Source of the DNA: a virus
Strand: one strand, 5' to 3'
Virus record (IMG/VR): IMGVR_UViG_3300042691_026427
Span: 1 to 64,000 of that record
DNA length: 64,000 nucleotides
Shown: positions 1,269 through 35,268 of the stretch, piece by piece
Numbering within the stretch: the stretch's first letter is position 1
Layout of the letters: every line of letters begins with the position of its first letter
Translations under genes and position numbers: made by a program
Notes under the pieces: generated by a model
What the model was told of the DNA's origin: nothing
The model's database searches: none
Seen by the model: the letters and a program-made list of their open reading frames with translations, nothing else

Positions 1269-1353
1269 TGGTGCCTTTGACTGGACTCGAACCAGCACGC
1301 CTTTCGGCACAGCGACCTCAACGCTGCGTGTCTACCAATTCCACCACAAAGGC
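1269..1353 (-). tRNA. tRNA-Leu(GAG)
   Basis: TT-GAG-GT, long variable arm, CCA. Confidence 0.95.
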
Positions 1354-1363
1354 TTTTTATATT

Positions 1364-1440
1364 TGGTACCCCGTGTCTGATTCGAACAGACAACCAACTC
1401 CTTTTGAGAGAATCCGCACTACCAATTAGCGTAACGGGGC
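1364..1440 (-). tRNA. tRNA-Leu(CAA), short variable loop
   Basis: CT-CAA-AA, 5-nt variable loop, A73, CCA. Confidence 0.85.
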
Positions 1441-1449
1441 ATTTAATTT

Positions 1450-1527
1450 TGGTGCGGTGAACGGGATTCGAACCCGTACTGTACAGATTTTAAGTCTGTT
1501 GCCTCCTACCTATTGCGCTACCACCGC
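1450..1527 (-). tRNA. tRNA-Leu(TAA), short variable loop
   Basis: CT-TAA-AA, 5-nt variable loop, A73, CCA. Confidence 0.88.
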
Positions 1528-1536
1528 GATGTAAAA

Positions 1537-1650
1537 CAGGATACCTTTTTCGATGGCGTGTAAGCCATTGCTCTACCATTGAGCGATCTACGCAAAAGCG
1601 TGGAGTTGGAATCGAACCAACGTGTCGTTAGACATTGCTGTATGTATCCT
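1537..1650 (-). ncRNA. YrlA-like circularly permuted tRNA mimic (CAGCA-motif RNA A)
   Basis: AGGAUAC/GUAUCCU closing stem + CAGCA; T arm, loop-closed acceptor stem, D arm, anticodon-like arm in permuted order. Confidence 0.8.
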
Positions 1651-1658
1651 AAAACTTG

Positions 1659-1734
1659 TGGTGCCATAGACTGGACTCGAACCAGTAACACACGAATTTT
1701 CAGTCCGCTGCTCTACCATTGGAGCTACTATGAC
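1659..1734 (-). tRNA. tRNA-Phe(GAA)
   Basis: CT-GAA-AA, CCA. Confidence 0.95.
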
Positions 1735-1745
1735 ATAAACTTATT

Positions 1746-1819
1746 AGGGGTGACTATCGGGATTTGAACCCGAACTACCAGAGTCACAGTCTAGGTTGCT
1801 ACCATTACAACATAGCCAC
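1746..1819 (-). tRNA. tRNA-His(GTG)
   Basis: CT-GTG-AC, G-1; 3' end CCT (CCA not fully encoded); flanks pair (ACTTATTAGG/CCTAATAAGT). Confidence 0.9.
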
Positions 1820-1837
1820 ACCTAATAAGTCTAAAAT

Positions 1838-1911
1838 TGGCAGGGGTAGTAGGGATCGAACCTACACTCTCAGAGTCAAAGTCTGATATGCTACCATTAC
1901 ATAATACCCCA
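1838..1911 (-). tRNA. tRNA-Gln(TTG)
   Basis: CT-TTG-AC, U1:A72, CCA. Confidence 0.95.
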
Positions 1912-1920
1912 ACAAAATAA

Positions 1921-1976
1921 CAGGATGCTTATTTTTCAATTAAAAGTTGAATTTTAAAAATTGCTGAACGCATCCT
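1921..1976 (-). ncRNA. CAGCA-motif RNA B carrying a Lys(UUU) anticodon stem-loop
   Basis: AGGAUGC/GCAUCCU-G stem, GUU-CAGCAA, inner UUCAA-CUUUUAA-UUGAA. Confidence 0.75.
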
Positions 1977-1981
1977 AAAAC

Positions 1982-2057
1982 TGGTACATCGTGTAGGGAT
2001 TGAACCTACGACCTACGCCGTGTAAAGACGCCGCTACTACCGCTGAGCTAACGATGC
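1982..2057 (-). tRNA. tRNA-Val(TAC)
   Basis: TT-TAC-AC, CCA. Confidence 0.95.
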
Positions 2058-2063
2058 ATAAAT

Positions 2064-2139
2064 TGGTCTCCGTACTAGGATTCGAACCTAGACCTTACCG
2101 CCCCAAACGGCAAGTGCAACCTGATAACACTTTACAGAG
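2064..2139 (-). tRNA. tRNA-Pro(TGG)
   Basis: TT-TGG-GG, C1:G72, CCA. Confidence 0.93.
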
Positions 2140-2146
2140 ATGAAAT

Positions 2147-2220
2147 TGGCGTACCTCCAAGGACTCGAACCTTGACTGACGGTTTTGGAGACCGCGATGC
2201 TGCCATTACACTAGAGATAC
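2147..2220 (-). tRNA. tRNA-Trp(CCA)
   Basis: CT-CCA-AA, CCA end. Confidence 0.95.
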
Positions 2221-2229
2221 ATTATTAAA

Positions 2230-2283
2230 CAGGCTTCGCTTTTTTTCATTTACAGTGAAATTTAAATTTGCTGAAAGAAGCCT
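2230..2283 (-). ncRNA. CAGCA-motif RNA C carrying a Tyr(GUA) anticodon stem-loop
   Basis: AGGCUUC/GAAGCCU-G stem, UUU-CAGCAA, inner UUUCA-CUGUAAA-UGAAA. Confidence 0.75.
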
Positions 2284-2289
2284 AAAACT

Positions 2290-2375
2290 TGGAGGATAGA
2301 ATCAGAATCGAACTGATACCCATTTCTGAGTAGATCGGTTTAGCAAACCAACTTGTGCCCAGCACACTACTATCC
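2290..2375 (-). tRNA. tRNA-Ser(GCT), atypical D arm
   Basis: TT-GCT-AA, long variable arm, CCA; compact D region. Confidence 0.8.
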
Positions 2376-2382
2376 ATAAAAT

Positions 2383-2456
2383 TGGTGCCCCATGACAGAA
2401 TCGAACTGCCGTAACCTGATTACAAAACAGGTGTAATACCATTATACTAATAGGGC
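2383..2456 (-). tRNA. tRNA-Thr(TGT)
   Basis: TT-TGT-AA, CCA. Confidence 0.95.
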
Positions 2457-2461
2457 AAAAT

Positions 2462-2536
2462 TGGCTCCTCAGACTGGGATCGAACCAATGACCGATCGGT
2501 TAACAGCCGATTGCTCTACCGCTGAGCTACTGAGGA
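2462..2536 (-). tRNA. tRNA-Asn(GTT)
   Basis: CT-GTT-AA, canonical arms, CCA. Confidence 0.96.
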
Positions 2537-2544
2537 ATAAAACT

Positions 2545-2622
2545 TGGAGTAGCGGGTGAGATTTGAACTCACGGTTTTACGGATTTGCAATCCATTGCAT
2601 TGGGCCTCTCTGCCACCGCTAC
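2545..2622 (-). tRNA. tRNA-Cys(GCA)
   Basis: TT-GCA-AA, U73, CCA. Confidence 0.95.
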
Positions 2623-2631
2623 ATAAAAACT

Positions 2632-2705
2632 TGGTAGCCAGTCCACGAATTGAACGTGAAATTTCCGCTTATCAGGCGAATGTTATTCCATTTAACTAAC
2701 CGGCC
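2632..2705 (-). tRNA. tRNA-Ile(GAT)
   Basis: CT-GAT-AA, CCA. Confidence 0.9.
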
Positions 2706-2714
2706 AGTTATTTC

Positions 2715-3116
2715 TTACCACTCTGCGTATTCACTTATCATACGAGAGTTTGTATCTTGTCTTTTAGTAGATTCTACACAACGAAGTTTAACTTCTTTCA
2801 CATCACATATTGCTGTAATAGGAATAAGATATACTTTATCTAATTCGTTTACATAAACTGCTAAACAATCAATGTTACTTTCGTTGTAAGAAACTCTATT
2901 AGTGAATGTGTTTTGCGATAGTTTGATTGTAACTACACCGTTACTTTCCAACGATCTAAACTTAACTTGAACTCTTAAAAGTGTCCCATCATGTTTATCT
3001 AACACATAATCATAAGGACAACCTTGAGGCATCTTGCCAGTCCAGTACCCTCGTTTAGCAGAAGCAAGCACAAATGCTGCTTCTCCTATTTCACCTTTTT
3101 CATTTGATATACTCAT
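2715..3116 (-). CDS. free-standing PD-(D/E)XK homing-type endonuclease (I-Ssp6803I/PDDEXK_5-like)
   Basis: KGEIGE...PYDYV...RVQVK motif; AGGAG SD before the ATG at 3116. Confidence 0.8.
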   Translation of the reverse strand: MSISNEKGEIGEAAFVLASAKRGYWTGKMPQGCPYDYVLDKHDGTLLRVQVKFRSLESNGVVTIKLSQNTFTNRVSYNESNIDCLAVYVNELDKVYLIPITAICDVKEVKLRCVESTKRQDTNSRMISEYAEW

Positions 3117-3172
3117 AGTGTTTCTCCTATGAGTAGTTATAACACTCGCCAGGAAAGCGGGCGATAATAAAA

Positions 3173-3237
3173 CAGGATACTTTGTGTCGCTAGACAACCA
3201 AAAAGTTTAGCTAATTTGAATTTGCAGAACGTATCCT
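3173..3237 (-). ncRNA. CAGCA-motif RNA D (CUGCA variant)
   Basis: AGGAUAC/GUAUCCU-G stem, GUU-CUGCAA. Confidence 0.65.
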
Positions 3238-3244
3238 AAAACTA

Positions 3245-3319
3245 TGGTGGACCGTCGGGGGATCGAACCCCGACCTGAGACGTGCAAAGCCCCCGTGCTC
3301 CCATTATCACTAACAGCCC
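3245..3319 (-). tRNA. tRNA-Ala(TGC)
   Basis: TT-TGC-AC, G3:U70, CCA. Confidence 0.95.
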
Positions 3320-3324
3320 ATAAT

Positions 3325-3411
3325 TGGTGGAGTGTGATGGAATCGAACCACTTGGCGCCACCCTACTTGTTAGGCCTACCGGGTTACAGCCGGCAATAGG
3401 GAACACACTCC
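3325..3411 (-). tRNA. D-armless tRNA-Tyr(GTA)-like RNA
   Basis: acceptor GGAGUGU/ACACUCC-A-CCA, CU-GUA-AC loop, T loop; no D hairpin. Confidence 0.7.
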
Positions 3412-3417
3412 AATTTG

Positions 3418-3620
3418 TTAACACTCTCTTGTGAAAGTGCTTATTAAAACAAACTGTTACGCTATGCGTCCTGTTCTGAGTCAGAGTCAGCAGGTACCAA
3501 TTTGCTTTAATAACTAGTATTTTTTTATCTACAAGAAGATAAGCCATCCACTAGTCCGCCCGTTTACGACATGTTTTAAGTGCGTCGCCCGGGCCTCGTT
3601 CCCGTACTTTATTACACTTT
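3418..3620 (-). ncRNA. structured non-coding block including a long hairpin tipped by a Gln(CUG)-like anticodon loop
   Basis: 16-bp stem 3441-3456/3498-3513 enclosing CUGA-CUCUGAC-UCAG; GCCCG/CGGGC and ACUAGU/ACUAGU helices. Confidence 0.55.
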
Positions 3621-3625
3621 GCGTC

Positions 3626-3787
3626 CTACAACTGCTCTTGAGCAATCTCACGCTTTCTAACGGCTTTGCTGTACACTTGGGCACGTTCCATCTTTTCTAA
3701 GATCATCTTACGAAGATCTTCTTTGGATAGAGTATACTTTTGTGTAAACTCAGCTTCTCGTTGTTTCTTTTTATCTGTTTCTATCAT
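3626..3787 (-). CDS. 53-aa charged helical protein (MIETDKKKQREAEF...), first gene after the attenuator
   Basis: open frame ATG 3787 to TAG 3626; below the ORF-track size cutoff. Confidence 0.55.
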   Translation of the reverse strand: MIETDKKKQREAEFTQKYTLSKEDLRKMILEKMERAQVYSKAVRKREIAQEQL

Positions 3788-3801
3788 TTTTCCGTTCTAA
3801 A

Positions 3802-3835
3802 AACAAAAAACCCCAGGGTTTTTAATCCTAGGGTC
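3802..3835 (-). terminator. intrinsic terminator (attenuator) upstream of the tRNA array
   Basis: GACCCUAGG/CCUGGGGUU stem + U tract. Confidence 0.85.
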
Positions 3836-3861
3836 CTTTGGAGTTGTTGTGTACTTTTGTG

Positions 3862-4011
3862 TTACACTACGGTCTCCTGGGACCCCGGGTAAATCTCTGG
3901 TGTGCGATCATATGACAGACTACCACACTCGATAGATAACCAATTGGAGGCTATGACGCCTGCCTGTTTGGGCATCGTATTAAATTGTTGATGTCTGTTA
4001 AACGATTGCAT
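3862..4011 (-). CDS. 49-aa putative leader peptide containing all 20 amino acids
   Basis: MQSFNRHQQFNTMPKQAGVIASNWLSIECGSLSYDRTPEIYPGSQETVV; its 3' end overlaps the antiterminator arm; SD weak. Confidence 0.65.
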   Translation of the reverse strand: MQSFNRHQQFNTMPKQAGVIASNWLSIECGSLSYDRTPEIYPGSQETVV

Positions 4012-4070
4012 TTTGTTTTCTTTTAAAAACCTTTGTTTACATAGATAGCACCATTGCTGCCTATGTGTTA

Positions 4071-4276
4071 ATTATACATTTATTTAGTCTCGTTGTCAAC
4101 CACTATTTGTCTTTTTGAACAAAAAGTTTTTAACAACTTTCCTAACTTGTCTCTATTGTACAGTTATTTAGTCTCGGTGTCAACCTTTTTTTATTCTGTT
4201 GAACAAAAAGTTTTTTGTTAACTGCGAAACTTCCAAACCATGTGTCTATTGTATGATCATTCATCTTCTTTGTCAA
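4071..4276 (-). promoter_or_regulatory. three tandem sigma70 promoters (4071-4099, 4155-4183, 4248-4276)
   Basis: TTGACA-17-TATAAT, TTGACA-17-TACAAT, TTGACA-17-TACAAT; repeated flanks. Confidence 0.9.
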
Positions 4277-5153: not shown

Positions 5154-5798
5154 ATGCACGCTATAATAAGCCACCACAATGACACATACCAGCCGTTGGC
5201 TGATTATACATGGACCGGAAACAAAATTCCCTATGCCGAAAAGCACGGGTATCAATGTCGAATGGAAGAACTAACATCGTTAGGGCACGGTGCCCAACTT
5301 CATAAAGTTGATTTTATCAATAGAATGTTGCACGATCCTCAAAACTACGACTGGATATGGTGGACTGGTTGTGATTTAATGGTTACTAACTTCAATACCA
5401 AAATTGAAGAAAAGATTGATAACCAGTATCACATGATTATCGCCACTGACTGCAACGGATTTAATGCAGACAGTATATTGATTCGAAATAGTCAAGAAAG
5501 TAAAGATTATTGGAAAATGGTTTCTGAAGTATTGCCGGGCTTACATTGGCATTGGGAAGGCGAGCAAAAGATTATCAAAGACACATATCCTAATTACAAA
5601 GACATTATCAAAGTTGTTCCACAGCGAGATATCAATGCTTATGATTATTCCACTTACGGTGGTGCATACCCTTCAATTGATTATCTAAACACTGACGGCA
5701 ATTGGCAGCATGGCGATTGGGCTATACAATGGCCGGGACTGGGATTAGAACTAAGATTGCAATTGGCCGAACTGTATTCACAAAAGGTTGTCAAATAA
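5154..5798 (+). CDS. glycosyltransferase, GT34 (GMA12/MNN10)-like
   Basis: YAEKHGY, DWIWWxxxD, FNADSILIRNS, EQ motifs. Confidence 0.7.
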   Translation: MHAIISHHNDTYQPLADYTWTGNKIPYAEKHGYQCRMEELTSLGHGAQLHKVDFINRMLHDPQNYDWIWWTGCDLMVTNFNTKIEEKIDNQYHMIIATDCNGFNADSILIRNSQESKDYWKMVSEVLPGLHWHWEGEQKIIKDTYPNYKDIIKVVPQRDINAYDYSTYGGAYPSIDYLNTDGNWQHGDWAIQWPGLGLELRLQLAELYSQKVVK

Positions 5799-7117
5799 TG
5801 GAACATATTTTAAAACAGATTCGCGAATACATTGACGAAAAGAATTCTAAAAAATCGTGGACTGCTGGTAAGGACTTTGTTAACTATGCAGGTCCACATT
5901 TTAATGCAGATGAAATTGTCAGTGCTACTGAAACCTTACTAAATGGATGGCTAGTAATGGGCGACAAATGTCTTAAGTTTGAAAAAGAATTTCCTAAGCA
6001 GTTTGGAAAAAACTTTGGAATACTTACAAACAGTGGTAGCTCCAGTAACTTGTTAATGATGGCAGCTTTGACCAGCAAGCGTGGACATCATTTGCCCAAA
6101 GGTACAAAAGTATTAATGCCTATTGCGGGATTTCCTACTACACTGAATCCTACACTTCAAGTAGGTTTTGAACCGGTATTTGTTGATATCGAAATTGATT
6201 CACTTAATCTAAATCTCGATCAAGTAGAACAAGTGCTAAACTCTGATCCAGATATTCGTGTTATTACATTTGCACATGTATTAGGTAATCCACCTAATAT
6301 GGATCAATTAATGGCATTAGTTCGCAAACACAATTTAATCTTGTTAGAAGATTGCTGTGATGCATTAGGCAGTACCTATGCAGGTATTCCTTTGGGCAAG
6401 TTTGGAGAAATGGCATCATGCAGTTTTTATCCAGCACATCATATGACCATGGGAGAAGGTGGCTTTGTTGCCTGCAGAGATTATCAGCAAGAAGTAATTT
6501 TAAGATCATTTAGAGAATGGGGCCGTGGTTGTTATTGTGTGGGTCCAGAAGCCAATAAACTCAAGTGCGGTAGTTGCGGTAATCGATTTAAAGAATGGAT
6601 TCCGGAAATGCCAGGAGAAATTTTTGACCACAAATATGTTTACGACGAAATTGGGTATAATTTAAAACCGATTGAAGTGCAGGGCGCCATGGGTCTACAT
6701 CAACTAGAAAAGTTAGACGAGATCCACAGTCTAAGAAAACGAAACTACCACTTGTTGTTTAGCATATATAAGAAATACGAAGAGTTCTTTCATCTTCCCC
6801 GACCTACTGCTAAATCAGATCCTAGTTGGTTTGCTTTTCCGTTGACTATCCGTGAAGGTGCACCTTTTAAGCGTAGCGACATTGTTGATTATTTAGAAGA
6901 AAATTTAATTCAGACTCGTCCGTACTTTGCCGGTAACATCATGTTGCAGCCTGCATACAGCCATTTGATGAATCCTGCTGATGCCCGTGATAACTTTCCT
7001 GTTGCTACTCATGTGATGCGCAACACGTTCTTTCATGGTACTAGTCCAGTTATTACTCCAGAACAAATTGCTTACATTGGAGAAAAGGTTGACGGTTTTA
7101 TGAGTTTATTTGTTTAA
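5798..7117 (+). CDS. rfbH: CDP-4-keto-6-deoxyglucose 3-dehydratase (DegT family, RfbH/DdhC type)
   Basis: SFYPAHHMTMGEGG (His replaces the PLP Lys), WGRGCYC..C cluster, FDHKY; start coupled as TAATG. Confidence 0.88.
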   Translation: MEHILKQIREYIDEKNSKKSWTAGKDFVNYAGPHFNADEIVSATETLLNGWLVMGDKCLKFEKEFPKQFGKNFGILTNSGSSSNLLMMAALTSKRGHHLPKGTKVLMPIAGFPTTLNPTLQVGFEPVFVDIEIDSLNLNLDQVEQVLNSDPDIRVITFAHVLGNPPNMDQLMALVRKHNLILLEDCCDALGSTYAGIPLGKFGEMASCSFYPAHHMTMGEGGFVACRDYQQEVILRSFREWGRGCYCVGPEANKLKCGSCGNRFKEWIPEMPGEIFDHKYVYDEIGYNLKPIEVQGAMGLHQLEKLDEIHSLRKRNYHLLFSIYKKYEEFFHLPRPTAKSDPSWFAFPLTIREGAPFKRSDIVDYLEENLIQTRPYFAGNIMLQPAYSHLMNPADARDNFPVATHVMRNTFFHGTSPVITPEQIAYIGEKVDGFMSLFV

Positions 7118-33870: not shown

Positions 33871-35268
33871 TTAAGCAATTACGCTGTAACGTGGACTGTT
33901 TAGTGTCGCCAACATTACGTTGGTTGGATCTAAATCTTCTGCCTTCAAGATTGAAGTCATGATGCTTGGGCTGAACCCAGACACCAATGCAACTCCCTTC
34001 TTGTCGAACTTGACTGGACTTTGTCCCGCCTTAGCGTTCAAGTTCCAGAATACAATGTTTGGCACAGTGTATCCTGCTTCGGCAAACTTACGTTCGATCA
34101 TTTGCATAGCAGAGTCATCGTGACGAGCACATTGATCAAACTGCATATCACTCATGATCAGAACATACTTTGGCATGTCGTTGGCACTAACACCACCTGC
34201 CTTGGCAACACGCAACACTTCTTCAAATGCGGCGTTTAGGTTAGTGTTCATGTCCCAATCTGCTCGTTGCAACTGTGCCAACTTGCTGGTCAAGTTACCC
34301 TTCAAGATTTCGATCTTGCTCTTTGCAGAGAAAGTCAAAAACATGTCCTTGAATGGACCAGTGTTCTTGTCAGCGAGGTACAGGCCCAAGCTAACGCAAA
34401 CGTCCATACAAGTCAAGTTGGCGTTTCCACCAACTGGGCAGCTCATAGAGCCCGATACGTCACACATTGGTAACACCAGTTCATCACCGATGTAGTTTGG
34501 CAATGCATCCCATTGGGCTTGCATTACAGTGGCATCGCCGCCAAACTTGTTGCTCTTGATGACATCGTAAGGGTAAACAGCCGAAGCGTTTACCTTTGCT
34601 TCACCAGTAACCAACTTGCCCTTGTAAGCTTCATACCCTGCGGCATCGTGCTTCTTAAAGGCCTTTTGGTAACGTGCAGCCGCAAGCGACGGCACATGGC
34701 TATAGTTGATGTTGGTCCAGTCGTTGGCACACATGTTCTGTTCCACAGTCTTGCTCAAAGAGACAAGGCTCTTACGGTAAAACTTTGGGCTCATTCCGAA
34801 GAATGTGCGGATTTCTGCGGCCAATGCACCCTGACGTGGCATCCACTTTGCAGCCAGGCCGTTACGTTCACGAAGAGCGTCACCGATTAGGGTAAATGCC
34901 TGTGCCTTTGCTTCCTTAGAAGTAAAGATCAACAGGTCATCCCAACGACCAAATTCTGCAAGGTGAGGGATCAAACGAGCCAACGCCTTAGGGTTAGTCT
35001 TTTCAAGATTCAAAAGAATCTTACGCACGACTTCACGTTCGCCTGCGCCACCACGGACGTCACGTGCCCACATCAAAAGACGTAGGGCCAGTGTTTCGTC
35101 CTGTGCAAGGGCACGGGCAAATTGGGTGCTCAAGTCCTTACCACGGCTTGCGCCAATAGTGAAGAACAGATCAACAAGATCGCTCTTGCTGGAATCGAAA
35201 GTCTTCATACCGTTATCGGTACGGACAGTCTTAGGTACGGTCTTAACCGCTTGAACAAATGCGTTCAT
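33871..35268 (-). CDS. DUF2828-family Ro60/TROVE-like helical-repeat + vWA protein
   Basis: TDNG..LVDLFF, ARDVRGGAGER, GRWDDL, AAKWMPR, YSHVPS, MIDAS DVSGSM, IVFWNL, LVSGFSP. Confidence 0.85.
   Translation of the reverse strand: MNAFVQAVKTVPKTVRTDNGMKTFDSSKSDLVDLFFTIGASRGKDLSTQFARALAQDETLALRLLMWARDVRGGAGEREVVRKILLNLEKTNPKALARLIPHLAEFGRWDDLLIFTSKEAKAQAFTLIGDALRERNGLAAKWMPRQGALAAEIRTFFGMSPKFYRKSLVSLSKTVEQNMCANDWTNINYSHVPSLAAARYQKAFKKHDAAGYEAYKGKLVTGEAKVNASAVYPYDVIKSNKFGGDATVMQAQWDALPNYIGDELVLPMCDVSGSMSCPVGGNANLTCMDVCVSLGLYLADKNTGPFKDMFLTFSAKSKIEILKGNLTSKLAQLQRADWDMNTNLNAAFEEVLRVAKAGGVSANDMPKYVLIMSDMQFDQCARHDDSAMQMIERKFAEAGYTVPNIVFWNLNAKAGQSPVKFDKKGVALVSGFSPSIMTSILKAEDLDPTNVMLATLNSPRYSVIA

Follow-up and report, generated by a model that had tools for sequence, protein, structure and literature searches.

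The locus lies on a viral contig of 149 kb (IMGVR_UViG_3300042691_026427; completeness about 44% by CheckV), of which the first 64 kb (64,000 nucleotides) constitute the window analysed here. From the contig size and the CheckV completeness, the whole phage genome is probably about 340 kb. DNA and protein searches returned no relative among isolated phages, and searches with two other proteins of the window gave the same outcome. The features of the locus, in the order of transcription, are as follows.

4248–4276 (−): promoter 1, 11/12 match to the sigma70 consensus (promoter scan)
4155–4183 (−): promoter 2, 11/12 (promoter scan)
4071–4099 (−): promoter 3, 12/12, with a predicted start at about 4064, some 53 nt before the ATG (promoter scan)
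3862–4011 (−): leader ORF of 49 codons, in which every one of the 20 amino acids, Met by an internal codon, has appeared by codon 35 (ORF and homologue comparison)
3903–4010 (−): ORF-long hairpin, start-codon region with codons 34–37 (22 close homologues)
3898–4008 (−): putative sensing zone, codons 2–38, where a stalled ribosome would leave the antiterminator free (footprint folding model)
3827–3889 (−): antiterminator, comprising a core (3886–3880 with 3836–3830), GGAG (3877–3874) with 3843–3840, and an apical helix (3867–3863 with 3853–3849) that holds the stop codon (folding and homologues)
3800–3836 (−): intrinsic terminator hairpin and U tract (folding and homologues)
3626–3787 (−): optional 53-aa ORF immediately behind the terminator, found in 57 of 90 loci (ORF list and homologues)
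3418–3615 (−): conserved structured RNA of about 200 nt, the first near-universal cargo, whose 3' arm has an anticodon-like stem-loop (folding and homologues)
1269–3412 (−): proximal array, made up of a tRNA-like RNA (3412–3328), 15 called tRNAs, a PD-(D/E)XK gene and small RNAs, without a promoter of its own of at least 11/12 (ARAGORN and promoter scan)
1198–1226 (−): internal promoter, 11/12 with an extended −10, followed by a boxA-like sequence (1173–1161) and independent of the attenuator (promoter scan)
122–1028 (−): distal array of 7 called tRNAs, downstream of the internal promoter (ARAGORN)

Elsewhere in the window, a DUF2828/DUF7788 protein (PHROG 850, RNA-binding) is encoded at 33871–35268 on the minus strand.

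A recount of the leader ORF agreed exactly with the preliminary description of this DNA (40 distinct codons among 49, all 20 amino acids by codon 35), as did the three consensus promoters reported to fire into it, which are of the sigma70 type. Promoters of this type are a constant feature of the family: between one and four lie within 400 nt upstream in all 118 homologues with enough sequence, and the median distance from the last −10 box to the ATG is 57 nt. The Shine-Dalgarno interaction had been called weak; at −2.7 kcal/mol it is indeed weak taken by itself, yet ordinary for the phage, whose genes have a median of −3.0 against −1.5 for random sequence.

Peptide and terminator searches yielded 121 distinct full-length leaders, nearly all on viral contigs and related by descent; a profile search extended the family to 162 leader clusters at less than 50% identity. 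The leader frame is open in 121/121, while the other frames at the same loci are open in only 0–10 of 121, with 1.4–4.4 stops each. Measured from the ATG to an Asp-Arg landmark, leader length varies in multiples of three in 117/118 cases, and pN/pS is 0.38. This pattern of constraint strongly supports translation of the ORF. The peptide itself, 42–52 codons long across the family, has no Pfam or PHROG family match; only W, D and R are near-invariant, an RTPE motif occurs in 89 leaders, the spacing from W to R ranges from 7 to 13 residues and the distance from R to the antiterminator core from 10 to 41 nt.

Searches of bacterial genomes, all of limited sensitivity, did not find a genuine bacterial copy of the leader. 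The peptide pattern had no match in GTDB genomes, and a hidden Markov model run over 400 genomes of the order of Polynucleobacter gave one match, attributable to chance. The terminator pattern gave 22 matches to bacterial genomes, 21 of them ordinary terminators and one a true copy: a full leader and switch (L235, positions 5723–5931) on a 6.2-kb contig in a Polynucleobacter metagenome-assembled genome. That contig looks like phage DNA, and its binning offers a weak hint of a betaproteobacterial host for this phage family. A few variants have a leader that reads through the terminator region, namely L214 (around 4100–4130), where the segment separating the antiterminator core from the 3' arm of the terminator has been lost, and proteins P0083, P0092 and P0131; these represent either assembly artefacts with a deleted hairpin or natural loss of the switch.

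The composition of the peptide is far more constant than its sequence. Excluding the initiator, all 20 amino acids are present in 107 of the 121 leaders, compared with 0–4 of 121 for the other frames, 2/56 for the adjacent 53-aa control ORF and about 2.5% expected from pooled composition. The other 14 are one or two residues short of the set, with Cys the most frequent absence. Among divergent clusters (less than 50% identical), 94 of 144 have the full set and 39 more have 19 residues. Cys, His, Tyr, Met and Lys shift position among leaders, and when a residue present only once is missing from its usual site, it turns up elsewhere in the peptide in 70/76 cases against a background of 118/708 (17%); chimeras assembled column by column keep all 20 residues at a frequency of 0.11–0.19 compared with 0.81–0.93 observed, both contrasts being inflated by alignment error and shared descent. 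Relocation cases restricted to close pairs agree (14/16). The position of the set is also constrained: it is complete at least 3 codons upstream of the antiterminator core in 74% of leaders, compared with 14% when residue order is shuffled, and in 83/120 of the full leader set. Most residues occur one to three times per leader (Ala averages 2.3) and never in runs; most rare residues are single-copy and thus provide one chance of stalling each. On these comparisons the leader is kept by selection at all 20 amino acids, and it is composition rather than sequence that is conserved.

Codon diversity in this leader is high by every measure applied. Uniform codon use predicts 33.9 distinct codons, with a probability of 0.006 for at least 40; under the window's own codon usage that probability is 3e-5. 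None of 329 windows of 49 codons taken from the window's genes reaches 40 (maximum 37), and among the 764 small ORFs of the genome none has a greater excess of codon diversity than the leader. Conditioned on the peptide, the null is 35.2 (P 0.008). Leaders of the family average about 36 distinct codons of 48, which places this leader at the high end, and given each peptide the family uses 35.4 codons against 33.9 for random synonyms. About 29 of 44 decoding classes are represented in the sensing part, against an expectation of 27, and 90–92% of leaders exceed this decoding-class null. Codons that are rare in the phage (GCC, GAG, ACG, CCC, ATA and CAG) are retained in the leader. Several others are absent from the sensing part in this window (GGA/GGG, GTA/GTG, CTY, CTA, TTG, AAG, AGG, CGG and GAA), and CGG and AGG never occur there across the family. 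The leader had been described as pan-codon. A small, consistent codon excess exists, but that excess is modest, the family conserves the set of amino acids and several isoacceptors are not probed. By these counts the putative sensor is pan-amino-acid rather than pan-codon. The Tyr, His and Asp codons TAT, CAT and GAT are nearly fixed, with 2/243 changes to C-ending codons compared with 29/201 in the control ORF. We do not claim queuosine sensing from these U-ending codons, as the ORF-long hairpin includes TAT and GAT; the U-ending His codon could conceivably be linked to queuosine-type tRNAs.

Downstream of the coding part, two folds compete for the same RNA. The terminator (−19.7 kcal/mol, z −2.5) begins its 5' arm at 3836, 25 nt after the stop codon, in line with the distance first reported. 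The end of the ORF pairs with this arm through 13 of 14 pairs plus an inner helix over the stop, again as described, and the resulting antiterminator (3889–3827; −25.7 kcal/mol, z −4.1, 0/200 shuffles) is more stable than the terminator. Since both folds use 3836–3830, they are mutually exclusive. Across homologues the stop codon lies mostly 26–35 nt upstream of the terminator, and in 38/40 it takes part in the pairing of the apical helix; the inner hairpin of the antiterminator has z below −2 in 37/40. The peptide frame across the antiterminator core differs among lineages (61/28/1). Because the MAFFT alignment of leaders shifts the subtypes by one base against each other, anchored scripts were used to count pairs instead; in the 89-row table of pairs and motifs, about 9 mis-parsed rows (labels CC, TT and CT, and minor mismatch counts) were disregarded. 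The base pair common to both folds is A:U in 38, G:C in 16, G:U in 3 and A:C in none, with at least 9 switches along the tree. The A:U/G:C switches may reflect recombination of the whole 3' module instead of point compensation. The terminator stem carries compensatory changes as well. In 3380–4060, no Rfam cis-regulatory family (T-box, riboswitch or leader) matched below an E value of 1.9.

How a ribosome would bias this choice was modelled by folding around its footprint, at equilibrium and not co-transcriptionally. When no ribosome is present, or when its A site is at least 5 codons upstream of the core, the median terminator probability is 0.07–0.23; from an A site 3 codons upstream of the core to the stop it is about 1.0. 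For this leader the modelled ribosome turns termination on only from about codon 39, and the ribosome-free value is 0.08 (family median 0.07), although stalls at codons 2–11 give 0.4–0.85. A few homologues (L092, L041 and L066) fold as terminator whatever the ribosome position. Because the ribosome-free fold is the antiterminator, the predicted default is on, and failure of initiation should also induce read-through. Taken together, comparison of the 121 homologues gives strong support to a ribosome-controlled attenuator.

A second, longer structure overlies the ORF. In 22 close homologues the ORF-long hairpin is paired in 98% of cells, with 5 pairs changed on both sides; among divergent leaders 14/21 fold better than codon-shuffled controls, and pairing of the start codon is not universal. 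This hairpin explains part of the synonymous constraint on the leader. By limiting re-initiation on finished leaders, it probably confines the test to the first ribosome or ribosomes.

Behind the switch, 22 tRNAs called by ARAGORN lie on the leader's strand, from 3319 to 122, and the array reaches the contig start. A same-strand tRNA occurs within 1.3 kb of the leader in 99/99 loci with at least 1.3 kb of downstream sequence, and the distant homologues that were checked and are long enough downstream have a tRNA there too. Between the terminator and the array, the structured RNA (3615–3418, z −4.2) follows the attenuator in 113/116 loci; 9/10 of its predicted pairs carry compensatory changes, and it matches no Rfam family. 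It has nested helices, a C/U/A-rich loop that is conserved, and a 3' arm that varies and often shows anticodon-like 7-nt loops (CUG here; ACG, UUG, GAA and CCG in relatives). No terminator was detected in the window between this RNA and the first tRNAs.

Further features accompany the array. In twelve relatives (L020, L025, L047, L049, L050, L052, L056, L060, L064, L085, L193 and L213) a consensus sigma70 promoter lies within the last hairpin of the structured RNA, about 260–460 nt past the leader stop, and the first tRNA-Tyr follows its −10 box by about 9 nt. The boxA-like sequence that follows the internal promoter (window 1226–1161) resembles the boxA of rRNA operons and has similar counterparts in L094, L139 and L148. 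Inside the array, the PD-(D/E)XK endonuclease gene (PF11645) occupies 3116–2718 (−), and weak Rfam matches on the same strand to YrlA, Dictyostelium class I RNA (twice) and a tRNA-Sec-like RNA lie among the tRNAs (sites 1535–1650, 1921–1975, 2230–2282 and 3328–3412). At the contig end (113–1, −) a 12/12 promoter is followed by a Shine-Dalgarno sequence with a minigene of two codons, which overlaps an ORF of six codons, and there is a strong hairpin.

The proposal that the array stays off while the terminator forms does not hold in that form. The consensus promoter at 1226–1198 serves the last 7 tRNAs, and internal promoters occur in the arrays of 46/72 relatives, ahead of the first called tRNA in 19/72, with none in 26/72. 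The presence of such promoters weakens the tie between the switch and the tRNA level, and it is more likely that the attenuator boosts tRNA supply than that it strictly gates it.

We consider it likely that the locus is a ribosome-controlled transcription attenuator of the whiB7 type, which tests the capacity of the infected cell to translate every amino acid. The core of the preliminary description, a translated leader wired to a terminator and antiterminator ahead of a tRNA array, where stalling would lead to read-through, is supported at the level of sequence. Host RNA polymerase would start at the three tandem promoters and a ribosome would translate the 49-codon leader. A ribosome keeping pace to about codon 39 or the stop would cover the 5' strand of the antiterminator, so that the terminator forms and the transcript ends near 3800. 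A stall or lag in codons 2–38, caused by an uncharged, cleaved or missing tRNA or by a ribosome poison, or a failure of ribosome loading, would let the antiterminator form, and polymerase would run on into the small ORF, the structured RNA and the tRNA array. With at least one codon per amino acid upstream of the switch, a shortage in any amino-acid or tRNA family would trip read-through. The ORF-long hairpin, burying the AUG once codon 37 is made, would probably leave the test to the first ribosome or ribosomes, and the output would raise tRNA supply rather than gate it absolutely.

The same switch could instead serve mainly to make the structured RNA at 3615–3418 and the small ORF, for example as anticodon decoys or a processivity element, with the tRNAs arising largely from their own promoters. 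The near-constant place of this RNA after the terminator, its anticodon-like loops, and the promoters before the first called tRNA, which sit mostly at the 3' end of the RNA, fit such a division of labour. We nevertheless regard it as unlikely, because the 15 called tRNAs of the proximal array have no other strong promoter here, more than a third of the relatives' arrays lack any internal promoter, and no terminator was detected that would separate the RNA from the first tRNAs. That the leader probes every tRNA isoacceptor and is the sole on/off gate of the array is quite improbable: the codon count above its peptide-conditioned null, the decoding-class coverage of most leaders and the retained rare codons agree with it, but the excess amounts to only about 2 classes, CGG and AGG are never probed, part of the synonymous constraint belongs to the ORF-long hairpin, and internal promoters exist.

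Two further accounts were considered. In one, the Trp and the Asp-Arg-x-Pro-Glu motif would stall the ribosome on a ligand or stress, making the leader a nascent-peptide arrest sensor like TnaC, SecM or ApdA. W, D and R alone are near-invariant, the motif, which we take to resemble RAP-type arrest motifs, is common, and it ends where a stall would still allow antitermination. The variable distances from W to R and from R to the core lack the fixed spacing expected of such a sensor, however, the motif codons also form the 3' strand of the ORF-long hairpin, and the relocation of single-copy residues is left unexplained; we find this account very doubtful. In the other, nothing is regulated, and a small protein or RNA gene is followed by a leaky terminator with fixed read-through. 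We give this hardly any credence, given that conservation at the C-terminal end extends to the RNA fold but not to the peptide frame, that composition rather than sequence is conserved, and that two exclusive folds covary.

Beyond the attenuator reading, the arrangement is possibly a phage surveillance device, although we advance this tentatively. Full amino-acid and partial isoacceptor coverage would let stalling report tRNA-destroying defences or starvation, answered by replacement tRNAs and small RNAs displaying anticodons; the tRNAs made would relieve the stall and close the switch, giving an inducible, feedback-controlled counter-defence. Whether the large tRNA arrays of phages optimise codon bias or replace tRNA lost to host defence or starvation is a long-open question. 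A switch that raises the array's output only under faltering translation would speak for replacement, and it makes the question testable with one 250-nt reporter. The leader also presents an unusual case of selection on peptide composition rather than sequence, and its switch a ready-made broad sensor of translation stress.

The locus had been likened to the trp and his attenuators. In trpL, hisL, pheL, leuL, thrL and ilvL, a leader peptide precedes alternative antiterminator and terminator folds with the stop codon near the terminator; attenuators of the trpL type sense one to three amino acids through codon runs and terminate when no ribosome loads. The leader peptide, terminator and antiterminator are common to the phage locus, but its leader has no codon runs and its ribosome-free fold is the antiterminator, so it is not a member of the trpL/hisL/pheL/thrL type.

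Other systems share single aspects of the phage locus. The mobile tRNA array of Anabaena (trn operon) is induced 100–1000-fold by translational stress (PMC8421152), a report that mentions neither attenuation nor a leader; unlike the phage array, it is described as being under a protein repressor, TrcR (PMC10272220). Phage tRNAs can counter tRNA-cleaving defence, as in T5 against PARIS, whose AriB is stated to target Lys(UUU), Thr(UGU) and Asn(GUU) (PMC12409363); defence-countering tRNAs of this kind supply a likely reason to sense tRNA loss, and the codons of these targets (AAA, ACA and AAT) occur in the sensing part of 36–40 of 40 leaders. In E. coli, the toiL uORF before topAI senses many translation stresses through stalls at different positions, although it acts on translation initiation and Rho-dependent termination and controls a toxin-antitoxin pair; the accessible part of that paper does not report all-amino-acid content (PMC12121999). 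In the literature searched, which excludes most subscription papers, we found no attenuator before a phage tRNA array, no leader with all 20 amino acids and no sensor that controls the transcription of phage tRNAs.

The closest parallel is the whiB7/wblC uORF of Actinobacteria, where efficient translation leads to an intrinsic terminator, stalling to an antiterminator, and loss of the start codon raises expression (PMC10274678). In M. smegmatis the whiB7 uORF contains 19 of the 20 amino acids, and the range of starvations it senses depends on that composition (PMC10274678), so the underlying logic, first thought to be undescribed, is known, and whiB7, being on by default, is the right comparison for the phage locus. 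The whiB7 uORFs differ from one another in both length and content and are enriched in Ala; in M. tuberculosis several residues are missing, and the gene controlled encodes a transcription factor (PMC10274678). The phage leader, in contrast, is phage-borne and confined to 42–52 codons, keeps all 20 amino acids by compensatory relocation, and has tRNAs and a small RNA as its output. By analogy, and with no homology claimed, the phage leader would work like a whiB7/wblC attenuator, with the same logic and the same default on without a ribosome, while not being a member of that group.
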